From IMG/VR virus record IMGVR_UViG_2734482780_000003: DNA of 4,941 bases, one strand, 5' to 3'. This document shows, in pieces, positions 1 through 4,941 of the stretch. This stretch comes from a virus (taxonomy: Duplodnaviria; Heunggongvirae; Uroviricota; Caudoviricetes). How positions within the stretch are numbered: position 1 is the stretch's first letter; every line of letters starts with the position of its first letter. Under the pieces are notes generated by a model, which worked only from the letters and a program-made list of their open reading frames with translations, searched no databases and was not told the DNA's origin. The position numbers and the translations under genes were made by a program.

Positions 1-260
1 AATTTCCCTTTGCATACCAGGGCAAAACCTTTCCAGCCGATATACACCGTCAGGACAGCGCCACGAACCGGCAGCCCGACCTGCCCGTCGGCATCGTTCA
101 GTTCAATATCAAGCTGGTCAGCCTCAAAGCCCCGGTTATCCGTCAGGGTCATGCTCATCAGACGGTCGCTGATATTGCCGGTAATATCCCTGCTGTCGAG
201 CATCAGCATGTAATCCGGCGTCAGCGTACTGCCTGCATCAAATGTCAGCGCATCCAGCAT
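1..260 (-). CDS. D: Phage tail protein D (P2 gpD-like), N-terminal part only; the gene continues beyond the window start
   Basis: ATG at 260..258 opens a minus-strand frame with no stop down to position 1, translating MLDALTFDAGSTLTPDYMLMLDSRDITGNISDRLMSMTLTDNRGFEADQLDIELNDADGQVGLPVRGAVLTVYIGWKGF..., which I recognise as the gpD N-terminus. The start overlaps the U stop (TAATG). Position after U matches P2 order T-U-D. Absent from the ORF track because it has no in-window stop. Confidence 0.8.
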   Translation of the reverse strand, partial: MLDALTFDAGSTLTPDYMLMLDSRDITGNISDRLMSMTLTDNRGFEADQLDIELNDADGQVGLPVRGAVLTVYIGWKGFALVCKGK

Positions 261-739
261 TATCCCGCCCCCGTCATACCCGTGAATTTAGTCGCCATAC
301 TGCCAGCCTTACCGATGAGCGATTCCGCCTGTTTACCGATATCGCCATAAAGCGCGACCAGTGATTCATCAACGCGGGTGAGCGACAACGTAAAATCAAT
401 TTTCCGGGGTGTGCCGTCTGCAAAGAAAATACTCCCTGTTTCACTCACCCTGCTGATGACATACATGCCGTAAATCATGCCGGTGCCATCCAGCAACGGC
501 CACGCCCGGCCTTCCTCTGCCATCAGCCTGAGCGTGGTCATCGTCAGCTTCCCGCCGGTCAGTTCGGGATAAAGCACGCCGGCAAGCGTCATGTTTTCCT
601 CACCCACACCGAGAAACTGAAAGGCATCCCGTTTACCGATACGGGAATTTGACGGCCAGCGATAATCTGATTCGCGCTGCATGGTCTGGTGTGGCAGCGT
701 CTGGCGCATAAAAACAAACATACCTAACGCGAGCATCAT
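260..739 (-). CDS. U: Phage tail protein U (P2 gpU-like), 159 aa
   Basis: Complete ORF from ATG 739..737 to TAA 262..260. A GGAGGTGA Shine-Dalgarno (reverse complement of 744..751) sits about 6 nt upstream of the ATG. Product MMLALGMFVFMRQTLPHQ...TGMTGAG matches my recollection of gpU. Lies immediately downstream of the T stop, as in P2. Confidence 0.88.
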   Translation of the reverse strand: MMLALGMFVFMRQTLPHQTMQRESDYRWPSNSRIGKRDAFQFLGVGEENMTLAGVLYPELTGGKLTMTTLRLMAEEGRAWPLLDGTGMIYGMYVISRVSETGSIFFADGTPRKIDFTLSLTRVDESLVALYGDIGKQAESLIGKAGSMATKFTGMTGAG

Positions 740-753
740 TTTTCGTCACCTCC

Positions 754-2083
754 TTAACCGTCATGCATCATGCTGGCACGGGCGCGCGCACGTTTATCCC
801 GCTCGTATTTTTCGAGCGCATCCTGTAACTGGCGGTCAAGCTGTGTCCCCGGCGCAGTACCACCCGTCAGGCTGATGTGATATTCGTTTTTACTCTGGTC
901 CACATAAGAGCGGCCAGCCGGTGCCGTGACCGGCTGATAAGCCTGATAGCCTGCATAAGAGCTGGTCGCCGGAATATAACCACCGGTGCCATACGTGGCG
1001 GCATTAGTCCTTGCGGCGGTCTGGTCAAGTGTGTCTGACTCTTTGTTGATGACACCGAGTTTTTCCAGTACCCAGTCAATACCACTGCGCAGTTTGTTGA
1101 ACGCATTAAGCGGCAGCATCAACGCGTCAGCCAGTGCCTGCCCGAACATGACACCCGTGTCACGGCAACGGTTCAGGGTGTCCTGGGTGGCTTTGACCGG
1201 GGCAATCAGGTTTTTAAACCACTGCCACGCGGCCTGTAACTTTTCGCCCAGCCAGTCAAACACCGGCTTAAGTGGCGTGAACAGTTCCCCCACCGGCGCA
1301 AATGCCGCTTTCAGCCCTTCCACCACACCGCCAAAGAATGCGCTGACAGGCTCCCAGTATTTACGAATAAGCAACGCCCCGGCGACAATGGCGGCCACCA
1401 CGGCAACAACCGGCCAGCTAATCGCCCCGATGGCCGTCATAACAGCACTGCCAACCGTCGTGAAGATTGCCCCCATTGCGCCTGCTGCCGCGATGATGGC
1501 ATTGATGCCGGTGATAACCGGCCAGGCTACGAGGCCAATGGCACCGATGACGCCAGTCAGCGCCAGTGCGCCACCGACAATTAGGCCAATGGTTGACGCC
1601 AGTGATTTGTTTTTCTGGATCCAGCCGTCGAGTTTTAACACATACTTTGTGGCCGTCTGTGTGAGCTTACGCAGTGCGCCTTCCTGCTGGTCAAACAGGT
1701 CAGTCCCCACCGCTTCATAAGCGGACTGAAACTCCTTAAAGTCACCGCCGAGGTTATCCTGCATGATTTTAACCAGCTCTTCCGTTTTACCGTCCGAGGC
1801 TTTCAGCGTGGCGGTCAGCTTATCCAGTTTTCCGCTTGCTGCCGCTGCCAGTAAAACGTTCGCTGATTTCAGGGCTTCCTCACCAAAAATGGTTTTAAGG
1901 TATTCCCCCTTCTGAGACGTTCCCAGCTTGTGTTTATCAAAGCTGGCCTGAATCTCTTTCAGAATGGTGAACAACGGGCGCATATTTCCCTTTTTGTCCG
2001 AGGTTTTAACGCCAAGCTCTTTGAGTGCATCCCATGCTTTCCCTGTCGGAGCCTGTAATCGGGTGACAACGGCACTGCTACCC
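754..2083 (-). pseudogene. T: Tail tape measure protein T (P2 gpT-like), 5'-truncated: C-terminal portion only, frame intact to the native stop
   Basis: Minus-strand frame is open from 2094 to the TAA at 756..754; the first ATG is at 1983..1981, giving the 409-aa track ORF. The product has tape-measure character (central Gly/Ala-rich hydrophobic segment, ending ...EKYERDKRARARASMMHDG) and is followed by U and D. There is no N-terminal half: upstream the sequence switches abruptly to the 5' end of J. Confidence 0.75.
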
Positions 2084-2188
2084 GTAAAGGGAAATCAGTG
2101 TCGCCTTGCGTTCAGCGAGAATGCTTTCAAAGTCCAGCTCCTCGACCACATCCGGTGCGGGTAGCTGGTTCAGGTCGATAATTGGCAT
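2078..2188 (-). pseudogene. J: Baseplate assembly protein J (P2 gpJ-like) remnant: first 35 codons, then one non-native Gly codon and a TAG stop
   Basis: ATG 2188..2186, four nt after the W stop, translates MPIIDLNQLPAPDVVEELDFESILAERKATLISLYG*. I recall this as the gpJ N-terminus, which in P2 continues ...SLYP.... Here homology ends after the Tyr codon (2086..2084) and a TAG follows at 2080..2078. Confidence 0.75.
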
Positions 2189-2192
2189 GGTT

Positions 2193-2540
2193 TCAACTCA
2201 CAGGGATGGTTAATGAAAGTGGCTGGCCGGTGTCGTTGTGCTGGCCGGTTAACGTGGCCGTCATTCGCCCGTCAAAACTGCGCTCAGTGGTGACGGATGA
2301 CAGGGTGACGCGGGGTTCCCATTTCAGCACCGCCATGTAACAGGCGACCTTAATCTGCAACTCAAGCGCCGGGGTCTGCGGCTGGTCAATCATTGATGCC
2401 AGCAACGAGCCGTAATCACGACGCATCACCCGTGAGCCGACCGGTGTGCGCAGGATATCGCCGATACTCTGGCTGATATGCTCAAGGTCAGTGACAGTCA
2501 GGCCATCACTGCGATTCATTCCGAGATAACGCGCTGTCAT
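2193..2540 (-). CDS. W: Baseplate wedge protein W (P2 gpW-like), 115 aa
   Basis: Complete ORF from ATG 2540..2538 to TGA 2195..2193. The start overlaps the V stop (ATGA). Product MTARYLGMNRSDGLTVTDLEHISQSIGDILRTPVGSRVMRRDYGSLLASMIDQ... matches my recollection of gpW. Synteny V-W-J. Confidence 0.9.
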   Translation of the reverse strand: MTARYLGMNRSDGLTVTDLEHISQSIGDILRTPVGSRVMRRDYGSLLASMIDQPQTPALELQIKVACYMAVLKWEPRVTLSSVTTERSFDGRMTATLTGQHNDTGQPLSLTIPVS

Positions 2541-3172
2541 AAAGGACTCCCGGTTGTGCCGCCGCTGTCGCCGGGGTGTTTATGGGTATGCAGTACCTTA
2601 CCGTTTGATGAGAGTTCACCGCCGGTGTGTTCAATGTTGCCGCGCATCGTCCCGCCCTTCTGCACTTCCAGCGTGCCGGTAATCAGCCTGTTGGTGCAGA
2701 CCACCTCCGGGGTGTCCAGGGTGACGCGGGTTGATGCTTTCACCATGAACACCGGCACCGTGGCAGTAACAGAATCAGAAGCCGTCACGCTGGCCGTTTT
2801 AATTCCGCTTACCGTGAGTGCACTGGTTTCGGGTTCATATTCAATCACCGCCCCGTCAGGGAAACGGATATGCAGGGCATCCGCCGACACAGACGGCGAG
2901 GGGTTATCGCCGGAATAAATCCCCGGCAGAACGAACGCCGTGTCGAGTTCACCACCCACGGCCAGAATCAGCACCTGTTCCCCCACGGAAGGTGCCCACC
3001 ATGTGCGCGAACGCCCGGCACGATGGGTCAGCCACTGAAGCCAGTCGGTGCACATGCCGCCGGTCTGCACGCGGCAGCGACCGGCGTTAAGGTCGGTTTC
3101 GACGATAATGCCGGTGCGAATCATGTTGCGCAGTGCGCGCGCGAGTTCCTGAATATTTGCGAGAGTGTTCAT
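2537..3172 (-). CDS. V: Baseplate spike / central hub protein V (P2 gpV-like), 211 aa
   Basis: ATG at 3172..3170 (MNTLANIQELARALRNMIRTGIIVETDLNAGRCRVQTGG...) to TGA 2539..2537. The track ORF starts 6 codons earlier at a TTG (3190..3188), which I reject in favour of the ATG. Product matches my recollection of gpV. Confidence 0.88.
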   Translation of the reverse strand: MNTLANIQELARALRNMIRTGIIVETDLNAGRCRVQTGGMCTDWLQWLTHRAGRSRTWWAPSVGEQVLILAVGGELDTAFVLPGIYSGDNPSPSVSADALHIRFPDGAVIEYEPETSALTVSGIKTASVTASDSVTATVPVFMVKASTRVTLDTPEVVCTNRLITGTLEVQKGGTMRGNIEHTGGELSSNGKVLHTHKHPGDSGGTTGSPL

Positions 3173-3182
3173 GCATGTGAGA

Positions 3183-3240
3183 TTGCACAATATATAAAAG
3201 TTATGCTATCTGGATTCATTTGTAGAACTACCAGACAACA
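3183..3240 (-). promoter_or_regulatory. Candidate Ogr/Delta-activated late promoter for V (P_V-like): TGT...ACA partial dyad plus an AT-rich -10-like element
   Basis: On the minus strand upstream of the V ATG: TGTTGTCTGGTAGTTCTACA (3240..3221) contains TGT-N11-ACA (or TGT-N14-ACA), followed about 30-40 nt downstream by TTTTATATATT (3199..3189). P2 late promoters carry a TGT-N12-ACA activator site near -55 and P2 has a late promoter in front of V. The spacing here is not an exact match to the consensus as I recall it. Confidence 0.4.
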
Positions 3241-3255
3241 TTCAAGGAGAGCGTA

Positions 3256-4041
3256 ATGGTCAGCTATAATGTGACTAATGTGTGGGGGCTAATCGTTTTT
3301 TTCCTTTGTAGCTTTGCAGTATTAGCATTTTTTAGCTTTGGTAAAAGTAACCTTATGAGGCTTATTGCACATTATTTCAATTTTGGATATTCAGACAAAA
3401 AATTAAAAAGACTTGACCGCGAGTGGCGCGACATTCAACTATTTAAAATAATTAACGGAATCAATGTATCAGGCATTGAAAATGTGAGAATGATACAGCA
3501 GGGACTGATTGATGGAAAACTAAAAACATCGTATTTTTTCCTTACTCGCATCTGGGGTGACATAACAAAACCACCACACATAATTAAAACAATAATTGTA
3601 ATTCTGGCCAGTATTATTTATATTCTCTTCGCATGTTATATACACAACAAACAATCCGCTATAGTAAGAGATGCCATAGGCATACCATATAAAAATATGA
3701 TGTACTATGTTTATAGTGACAAAGTTCTTTTATCCTTCAAAAATAAAGCAGTTGAATTTAATAAAACTTATAGCCTTGCCGATTGCAAGAGACTGCAAAA
3801 CGTATTTATAAAAGACACACTTCCTGAAATCGCCTGCAATAAGCTCTTACAGCTAAACGAGGAGGACTCCGAATGGTTAAGCCAGGAGATTAAAGATAAT
3901 AACAGTCACAAAAAAGCATTATTAATACTATCCCTCGTCTATTTCACTTCAGGTCTGGTTATATTCCTGTCATATACAAAATTCTTTTACGCCAATAAGA
4001 AGGTTTTAGAATACAAAGCATCAAATAAAAATCACTCATAA
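3256..4041 (+). CDS. Hypothetical AT-rich membrane protein (261 aa, three predicted transmembrane helices); cargo gene at the S/V junction, the position occupied by orf30 in P2
   Basis: ORF from ATG 3256 to TAA 4039..4041. AAGGAG Shine-Dalgarno at 3244..3249 with 6-nt spacing. Followed 6 nt downstream by a 13-bp perfect hairpin. Composition is markedly AT-rich (roughly one-third GC by eye, against more than half in the flanking phage genes) with many ATA/AAA/AAT codons. Hydrophobic segments at residues ~9-29 (VWGLIVFFLCSFAVLAFFSFG), ~108-130 (HIIKTIIVILASIIYILFACYIH) and ~221-241 (ALLILSLVYFTSGLVIFLSYT). Orientation is opposite to the surrounding phage operons. No recognisable homology from memory. 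Confidence 0.7.
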   Translation: MVSYNVTNVWGLIVFFLCSFAVLAFFSFGKSNLMRLIAHYFNFGYSDKKLKRLDREWRDIQLFKIINGINVSGIENVRMIQQGLIDGKLKTSYFFLTRIWGDITKPPHIIKTIIVILASIIYILFACYIHNKQSAIVRDAIGIPYKNMMYYVYSDKVLLSFKNKAVEFNKTYSLADCKRLQNVFIKDTLPEIACNKLLQLNEEDSEWLSQEIKDNNSHKKALLILSLVYFTSGLVIFLSYTKFFYANKKVLEYKASNKNHS

Positions 4042-4046
4042 ACCTC

Positions 4047-4083
4047 TAAACATTGAGCGACCAGCATGGCCGCTCAATGTTTA
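4047..4083. terminator. Bidirectional intrinsic terminator hairpin between the convergent cargo gene (+) and S (-)
   Basis: Perfect inverted repeat TAAACATTGAGCG (4047..4059) / CGCTCAATGTTTA (4071..4083) around an 11-nt loop (4060..4070), with possible extra CCA/TGG pairing inside the loop. It lies 6 nt after the cargo stop and about 30 nt after the S stop. T/A-rich runs follow on both strands (TTAATT on plus; AGAGGTTTATGAGTGATTTTTATTTG on minus). Confidence 0.7.
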
Positions 4084-4112
4084 ATTGCGCATCAGCCTCT
4101 GCCTGGATAAAA

Positions 4113-4565
4113 CTAACGCTCAAGGTGAGCCAGGATAATCTCCTCAATCATCTGCACATCCTCACCGGTAAAGCCGAGCAGAGGACGCGCCGGATAATCA
4201 ATTTTCTTACCGTCTTTCCGGGTTTCTTCCGACAGACCGAACTGATGCACACTGGCGATTTTCGGCGACTTCCCGCCGTAAAATTCCATTGATGCCTGCT
4301 CCGGGCTGGCGCGGATATGCAAAAAACGACTGGTGATAAGTTTCGCAAACATTTTTCGCTTAACACGACCAGTCTTTTTTCTGGCGCTCTGCTGCTGGCG
4401 TGGCGCGTAGGGTGTGCCGTCCGGGGCTTTCTGAGCCATCACCCGACGCTGCTGACTCTGCCGCAGACGTTTCGCCAGTTCGGCGCTCAGTCGCCGACGC
4501 CCTGACGGTGACAGCGATTCAATCAGTCCGGTCAGCCGGTCTTCAAAACGCTTAAACTCATTCAT
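4113..4565 (-). CDS. S: Tail completion protein S (P2 gpS-like), 150 aa
   Basis: Complete ORF from ATG 4565..4563 to TAG 4115..4113. The start lies 8 nt inside the R stop region (R TGA at 4560..4558). Product MNEFKRFEDRLTGLIESLSPSGRRRLSAELAKRLRQSQQRRVMAQKAPDGTPYAPRQQQSARKK... matches my recollection of gpS. Confidence 0.88.
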   Translation of the reverse strand: MNEFKRFEDRLTGLIESLSPSGRRRLSAELAKRLRQSQQRRVMAQKAPDGTPYAPRQQQSARKKTGRVKRKMFAKLITSRFLHIRASPEQASMEFYGGKSPKIASVHQFGLSEETRKDGKKIDYPARPLLGFTGEDVQMIEEIILAHLER

Positions 4566-4941
4566 CCCACTTGCTCACCAGTTCGCCATTGATATAAAGC
4601 TCCACCGGGCGGGTGACCGGCTCCGGCGGCGTGGGTTCCGGGATATTCTTCACATGCAGTGCGCCGTCCACCTCACTGACCAGCGTGCGCTCGGTCAGCA
4701 TCAGGCTGATGCTGATATCAAAGCTGCTGTCATTGTTGATGTCTGCATAAAACGTGAAGCCCTTTTTCTGGCCTTCGTCAGTGGTCATGATGTCGGGCTG
4801 ATTTTCCCGCAGCCACGCCAGCACCGGCACGATGAGCAGGTCAAAATCACCGGTAAAGTCGGTCACAATCACATTGAGCGTGTAACGCTTTTCGAATGAC
4901 AGCGACGTCGCCAGTGTGGAGGCAATACTCCCGTTACACGC
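4558..4941 (-). CDS. R: Tail completion protein R (P2 gpR-like), C-terminal part; the 5' end lies beyond the window end
   Basis: Minus-strand frame is open from the window end to TGA 4560..4558, translating ACNGSIASTLATSLSFEKRYTLNVIVTDFTGDFDLLIVPVLAWLRENQPDIMTTDEGQKKGFTFYADINNDS...SKWDE. The track start at 4872 is an internal GTG; the true start is upstream of the window. Matches my recollection of gpR and the R-S order. Confidence 0.82.
   Translation of the reverse strand, partial: ACNGSIASTLATSLSFEKRYTLNVIVTDFTGDFDLLIVPVLAWLRENQPDIMTTDEGQKKGFTFYADINNDSSFDISISLMLTERTLVSEVDGALHVKNIPEPTPPEPVTRPVELYINGELVSKWDE

Follow-up and report, generated by a model that had tools for sequence, protein, structure and literature searches.

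What is the AT-rich block that lies between the late genes V and S in this stretch of viral DNA, and how did it come to be there? The stretch (4,941 nucleotides, IMG/VR record IMGVR_UViG_2734482780_000003, in the following called the window) belongs to a P2-type prophage whose late genes are encoded on the minus strand, as judged from open reading frame calls and domain matches. A preliminary description of the letters alone had noted an abrupt drop in GC content at the start codon of V with recovery in S, and had regarded the block as a horizontally acquired moron cassette. The best explanation, to which we assign a probability of roughly 0.85, is that the block represents the orf30 accessory cassette of a P2-type prophage, which fills an S-V junction that is found either empty or occupied by cargo. 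The following features of the window are of importance here:

260-739, minus strand: late gene U
754-1983, minus strand: C-terminal part of the late gene T (tape-measure gene)
2193-2540, minus strand: late gene W
2537-3172, minus strand: gene V (baseplate spike), GC 0.596; from matches to Phage_spike, Phage_base_V and Apex and the P2 annotation
3173-3241, minus strand: late promoter pV of the V-W-J-I-H-G operon, including the Ogr/activator site; from the P2 record
3173-4112: AT-rich S-V intergenic island, 940 bp, GC 0.345; from changepoints and the alignment of empty and filled sites
3244-3249, plus strand: Shine-Dalgarno sequence AAGGAG of orf30, 6 nt before the ATG; read from the sequence
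3256-4041, plus strand: orf30 coding sequence, 261 aa plus stop; from the open reading frame, the P2 annotation and PHROG 2407
4047-4083: hairpin and O-operon terminator, perfect 13+3 bp; from the P2 annotation and folding
4113-4565, minus strand: gene S (tail completion), GC 0.547; from a match to Phage_tail_S (E = 5e-44) and the P2 annotation
4558-4872, minus strand: late gene R'
Also within the window, minus strand: a stub of J and the start of D

The AT-rich block is the known non-essential gene orf30 of bacteriophage P2 (AF063097 / NC_001895, protein AAD03281.1). Positions 3100-4200 of the window are 98.7% identical in nucleotide sequence to P2 (AF063097) over the full 1101 bp, and the P2 annotation was transferred to the window at an offset of 401 with no indels. 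It places the V start at 3172, an "activator binding site; activation of pV promoter" at 3214-3241, orf30 (labeled "nonessential") at 3256-4041 on the opposite strand, a "putative rho-independent terminator for O operon" at 4047-4083 and the S stop at 4113. P2 shares the gene, its position between S and V, its orientation, the terminator hairpin and the pV activator site, and the orf30 of the window differs from that of P2 by approximately 1.3% of point differences alone. On its plus strand orf30 runs opposite to S and V and antisense to the late operons. Annotated since the 1990s, it is a textbook feature of P2.

In the literature orf30 is described as a 786-bp open reading frame of unknown function inserted between S and V, which is absent from W-phi and L-413C and has a different open reading frame in its place in phiCTX (PMC2771037). 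Horizontally acquired genes of P2-like phages were assigned to three loci, the orf30 region, the TO region and Z/fun (PMC3091744), and phage R18C carries a different 741-bp open reading frame at S-V (PMC6823313). The latter paper calls P2 ORF30 '261-bp-long'; the actual gene has 786 bp and encodes 261 aa. The interpretation of orf30 as horizontal cargo is already published, and in this respect the finding is correct and ordinary.

One peculiarity of the window lies outside of the block and is absent from P2. At 2084-2086 the first approximately 29 codons of J run straight into the C-terminal part of T. To the left of this junction (bases 1-2086) the window shares 99.5% identity with T-U-D of W-phi, and to the right (2084-4936) it matches an intact prophage of E. 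coli EC261 at 100% identity. The J'-'T junction was found in one piece in none of 5,426 complete E. coli genomes. It implies a deletion of several kilobases with a 3-nt overlap, which would have removed the remainder of J together with I, H, G, FI, FII and E/E', the Z/fun site, and the portion of T that encodes the N-terminus. The junction reflects either a defective prophage or an assembly chimera.

To place the block among its relatives we compared the S/V locus in 160 loci encoding relatives of V (80 from IMG/VR and 80 from GTDB, the latter with one genome per species). Both genes could be located in 135 of these loci, and adding the gap of the window itself makes 136 junctions. The junction is empty in 74 of the 136, with S and V separated by a spacer of 59-76 bp and a GC content of about 0.6. 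This spacer is conserved, compact and promoter-bearing, and was seen from Escherichia to Erwinia, Pantoea and Serratia; the phages W-phi, D8, 12W and pro483 are naturally without orf30. The other 62 junctions are filled with 813-3069 bp of AT-rich cargo (GC 0.32-0.47 compared to 0.51-0.61 in the flanks), and comprise 21 surveyed loci with an Orf30-family gene, 40 with other AT-rich cargo, and the window itself. The gap of 940 bp occurs in identical form in 17 other loci. If empty and filled junctions are aligned, homology ends 2 nt past the S stop and resumes exactly at the V ATG.

The 62 filled sites contain 44 protein families that are mutually unrelated by BLASTP, the commonest being the Orf30 family. 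The preliminary description had asked whether alternative cargo occupies the same boundaries, and 43 other families do so; neither is the gene universal in P2-like phages, as the empty junctions demonstrate. Most of the cargo consists of single genes encoding 200-500 aa. Among the annotatable cargo the majority is of the defence type: a type II restriction-modification pair, PDC-S06, GmrSD, AbiC-like, TIR, caspase, RelA/SpoT, AAA_21/AriA-like and DUF4062 proteins. Besides these, the cargo comprises Hcp and Tlde1, a fimbrial protein, a protein with an ion-channel domain and an 8xMP membrane protein. Signs of decay were seen in two IMG/VR loci. In one of the 21 surveyed loci with orf30 (L066) the allele is cut to 222 aa by a frameshift, with a gap that is 1 bp shorter, and in another locus (L051) a gene of a different cargo family (F3) is split into open reading frames of 126 and 66 aa.

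The composition of the block agrees with this picture. In sliding windows of 200 nt the GC content falls from 0.57-0.65 at 2900-3200 to 0.31-0.36 at 3200-4100, and returns to 0.51-0.60 past 4100. For 3173-4083 as a whole it is 0.341, compared to 0.561 in the left and 0.552 in the right flank. A maximum-likelihood segmentation with two changepoints locates the island at 3152-4054, with 2-log-likelihood support intervals of 3141-3190 and 4041-4086. The gain in log-likelihood is 75.7, whereas 20 shuffled sequences averaged 7.2 and never exceeded 12.2. The abrupt drop and the recovery in S are therefore real, and the boundaries originally proposed, 3173 and 4083, both fall inside the support intervals and match features of P2. 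The V ATG occupies 3172-3170 on the minus strand, which makes 3173 the first intergenic base. As to the extent of the island, the description from the first base outside of V to the last base of the terminator can be kept for the AT-rich part, but the variable, non-homologous segment continues through 4042-4112, a part of intermediate GC (0.48), up to the S stop (4112).

Codon bias was gauged by GC3 and by the fraction of rare codons, and on both counts orf30 is set apart from its six neighbours: its GC3 is 0.34 compared to 0.59-0.74 in U, T, W, V, S and R, and its rare-codon fraction is 0.13 compared to 0.02-0.07. That the low GC is a by-product of a hydrophobic membrane protein and an AT-rich promoter, and not of foreign origin, is hardly credible: membrane proteins rich in I, F, L, K, N and Y do use AT-rich codons and the GC2 of orf30 is 0.28, but the AT-richness goes beyond such an amino-acid effect because GC3, largely free of amino-acid constraint, is low as well, the non-coding part at 3174-3255 is also AT-rich (GC 0.354), and the presence/absence polymorphism with its exact breakpoints is seen directly, so that GC3 and the empty sites effectively refute an explanation by amino-acid composition.

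The preliminary description had also equated the block with one gene plus its control signals. This is only partly correct: the 83 bp that separate the start codons of V and orf30 (3173-3255) contain the phage's pV with the Ogr box, and are the phage's own control region and not that of the moron. A TGT-N11-ACA box at 3221-3237, which reads TGTCTGGTAGTTCTACA on the minus strand (3237-3221), starts at -65 from the V ATG, within the Ogr site annotated in P2. In 116 of the 136 surveyed gaps, and in the window as well, such a box (TGT-N10/11-ACA) starts 62-68 nt ahead of the V ATG, with cargo or not; in the empty phages it begins 2 nt past the S stop. As the position of the box is fixed relative to V with or without cargo, the cargo has always been inserted on the S side of pV. 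It lies between the S stop codon and the pV activator box. The whole empty S-V spacer of 66 bp appears to be the late promoter.

Two further observations concern this promoter. In the empty spacer (e.g. 3935-4000 in locus L005) a GC-rich hairpin, GCCGCCGG-TATGAC-CCGGCGGC, lies past the activator box and ahead of the V ATG. It occupies the region in which the -35 and -10 elements are expected and is kept in many filled loci. In the P2/orf30 allele this hairpin is replaced by an AT-rich sequence containing TATATATT, leaving a pV core that is AT-rich and unrelated in sequence to the version of the empty phages. Whether the spacer hairpin could serve as the O-operon terminator inside of the pV promoter is a question we would like to raise. 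Furthermore, the P2 record gives its position 10308 (3172 of the window) as the transcription start of the V operon, which is the first base of the V start codon. With this start the V mRNA would be leaderless, and the 20 nt ahead of the V ATG contain no visible Shine-Dalgarno sequence.

At the other end of the block the hairpin at 4047-4083 begins 5 nt past the orf30 stop and 30 nt past the S stop. Our terminator scan missed it owing to its loop and tail rules, and folding confirmed it (-21.3 kcal/mol, z = -6.2 on the plus strand; -30.2 kcal/mol, z = -4.35 in the minus-strand context). A run of T residues after the stem is absent on the plus strand. Judging from the fold, the hairpin probably works in both directions, and since it is near both stops it is best seen as a terminator common to the convergent genes S and orf30. 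The initial assignment as the cargo's own terminator thus needs amendment: a strong hairpin is indeed located at the end of orf30, but in P2 it carries the annotation of a terminator for the O operon, whose last gene is S, and the convergent orf30 shares it. In the allele of the window the cargo consists of this shared-terminator hairpin and orf30 with a good ribosome-binding site.

How orf30 is expressed is less evident. The 83-bp space upstream of the gene is taken up by the divergent pV, and as orf30 reads away from V its start is only 19 nt from the Ogr box. On the plus strand of 3173-3255 no sigma-70-like promoter with at least 9 of 12 matches was found, only weak -10-like hexamers. Eight promoter-like hits are located inside of the AT-rich coding sequence, where 3.4 ± 2.0 are expected, and these are probably compositional noise. 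As there is no upstream sigma-70-like promoter, expression of orf30 in the lysogen is assumed. A promoter of orf30 would have to overlap pV back-to-back, which means that expression of orf30 and Ogr-activated late transcription are probably mutually exclusive.

Orf30 belongs to a conserved family. PHROG 2407 ("unknown function") matches residues 1-261 of 261 (E = 1.1e-148), and the protein is 98% identical to that of cluster P0001. An exhaustive profile search of 1.84 billion representative proteins gave only 44 Orf30 clusters at 50% identity, nearly all of 250-270 aa and with the same layout, and a word-indexed search gave 15 clusters from Escherichia, Enterobacter and Serratia. Searches against Pfam and PADLOC gave no match (PADLOC-DB 2.0: 0 families at E ≤ 1), the best match in NCBIfam is sub-threshold (15 bits compared to a cut-off of 120), and no informative fold match was found for Orf30. 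Relatives with 15-39% identity occupy the S-V junction in the same orientation in prophages of Enterobacter, Pseudescherichia, Buttiauxella and Serratia; the homologues from Serratia, with 15-25% identity, are again located between V and S with the same orientation. All members of the family with examined genomic context lie at the S-V junction of a P2-like prophage, and the family appears from these relatives to be an old resident of the site.

A few loci of this family deserve separate mention. In Serratia rubidaea a decayed P2-like remnant (locus L163, 4272-6021) retains ogr and V, an Orf30-family gene for a protein of 253 aa, and no more than 49 aa of S; it lies among chromosomal genes, and the accessory gene has survived the loss of most of the prophage. 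Two loci from two genera have, next to the Orf30-family gene, a further cargo gene on the opposite strand, which encodes 273 aa with two transmembrane segments in one case (L089, 2102-2920) and 490 aa with one C-terminal transmembrane segment in the other (L109, 1556-3025). This hints that Orf30 may be part of a two-gene arrangement.

Selection on the gene was assessed with 12 E. coli alleles, for which dN/dS relative to the allele of the window is 0.25-0.61. Values below 1 indicate that orf30 is kept by purifying selection, while being less constrained than V and S. A spurious open reading frame is ruled out by these values together with the conserved family and the strong Shine-Dalgarno sequence. 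The 5' end behaves differently from the rest. Among the mosaic alleles compared (L004, L041, L048 and L082) the N-terminus and the first transmembrane segment are strongly divergent, and for the first 28 codons (3256-3339 of the window) dN is 0.37 and dS 0.31, whereas downstream divergence is zero in one of them (L004). These mosaics point to a recombination breakpoint inside of the 5' end, next to pV. For the phage orf30 is dispensable: it is marked as nonessential in the P2 record, and viable isolated phages lack it.

The residence of distant relatives in the same junction of other genera raises the possibility that orf30 is ancestral at S-V and was lost from the empty phages, in which case the island would be a retained old gene. 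The 15-39% identity of these relatives does suggest a long residence. We nevertheless consider ancestry improbable: the empty spacer is a compact, promoter-bearing unit of 59-76 bp that is conserved from Escherichia to Serratia, the same gap is filled by 43 other unrelated families, and the GC3 of 0.34 has not shifted toward the 0.6-0.7 of the phage. In the same loci Orf30 is much less conserved than the flanking V (62-85% identity), and the E. coli alleles are mosaic relative to their flanks, which indicates exchange rather than vertical descent. The accessory cassette in an S-V junction that is empty or filled remains the preferred reading, and the early interpretation as a horizontally acquired moron is supported by the empty/filled polymorphism, the GC contrast and the exact breakpoints. 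As is characteristic for a moron, orf30 lies between genes that are adjacent in relatives, deviates from them in composition, and is dispensable for lytic growth. While one must keep in mind that AT-richness is general to S-V cargo and that distant relatives occur at the same site, this argues for an accessory and exchangeable gene and does not imply a recent import.

A hint towards the function of the cassette arises from the predicted protein. Orf30 has three hydrophobic segments (residues 9-27, 109-127 and 221-239) with a mean Kyte-Doolittle value of 2.25-2.63 over 19-mers, and is predicted to be a three-pass inner-membrane protein. A positive-inside pattern holds across 25 homologues, with a family mean net charge of +5 in loop 1 and +2 in the tail, and a neutral loop 2 (0). 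The data fit a topology with the N-terminus outside, loop 1 in the cytoplasm, loop 2 in the periplasm with a disulfide, and the C-terminus inside. The most conserved motif is located in the basic loop 1 (D-x-Q-L-F-[RK]-x-x-N-G-[IV]-N-V ... D-A ... G-x-L). In loop 2 Cys194 is invariant and Cys177 is present in 22 of the 25 sequences. The AF2 model (pLDDT 77) contains three long helices and a four-stranded sheet in loop 2.

We therefore put forward the following mechanism for discussion. Orf30 may be made from the repressed prophage and inserted in the inner membrane, N-out and C-in, with a basic, helical cytoplasmic loop of approximately 80 aa and a periplasmic alpha/beta loop of approximately 90 aa carrying Cys177-Cys194. 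It could then protect the lysogen at the envelope by blocking the genome entry of other phages (superinfection exclusion). As an alternative mode, Orf30 might act at the membrane as an abortive-infection protein. Expression from the repressed prophage, the membrane topology and the envelope-level anti-phage role are tentative suggestions, to which we would give somewhat less than even odds.

Orf30 could also be a lysogenic-conversion factor unrelated to defence, acting on the envelope, on stress or colonisation, or as an aid to the prophage. A predicted membrane protein with a periplasmic domain would suit such a role, no known defence model matches Orf30, and an Orf30-like gene is retained in the decayed prophage remnant of Serratia. 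The S-V junction also hosts cargo outside of defence (Hcp, Tlde1, a fimbrial protein, an ion channel), and because its cargo is of such mixed purpose the location itself lends little weight to a defence role. Against this stand the prevalence of the defence type among the annotatable S-V cargo and the restriction of the known Orf30 family to S-V of P2-like prophages. Furthermore, the AT-rich P2 morons old, tin and Z/fun are all phage-exclusion genes (PMC9122126). Lysogenic conversion without relation to defence is, in our opinion, unlikely, and an exclusion function of Orf30 at the envelope is slightly favored over it.

While old/tin and Z/fun are now recognised as anti-phage hotspots (PMC9122126; bioRxiv 10.1101/2024.10.15.618418) and recent hotspot studies have centred on these two sites, hotspots 'within the tail genes' have been mentioned with S-V not dissected (PMC13586616). 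With at least 44 cargo families found here, many of them defence-like, the S-V junction could become a site for the mining of defence genes. Orf30, a protein of one of the best-studied phages, might be the founder of a three-pass inner-membrane exclusion or defence family, and S-V might be the third defence hotspot of P2-like phages, so far exploited very little; we regard this as possible, but rather doubtful.

Small inner-membrane proteins that exclude superinfecting phages are encoded by prophages or morons in several systems, namely T4 Imm, P22 SieA and HK97 gp15, the last being the product of a moron located among tail genes. Like the predicted Orf30 they are integral to the inner membrane. 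Orf30 is larger, however, with two soluble loops, and similarity to proteins of the Imm, SieA or HK97 gp15 type was not detected in sequence or fold. Within the S-V junction, ORF16 of R18C, the open reading frame of phiCTX and 43 other families share the insertion point and the low GC of orf30 but are unrelated to it in sequence; many of the other cargo proteins are soluble and defence-like, whereas Orf30 has three transmembrane segments and no recognisable domain. P2 itself offers a further parallel. For Old, Tin and Fun exclusion phenotypes have been demonstrated, whereas none is reported for Orf30; in genomic terms old/tin (the TO region) and Z/fun are, like orf30, non-essential, AT-rich cargo that is exchanged horizontally at fixed positions between conserved genes.
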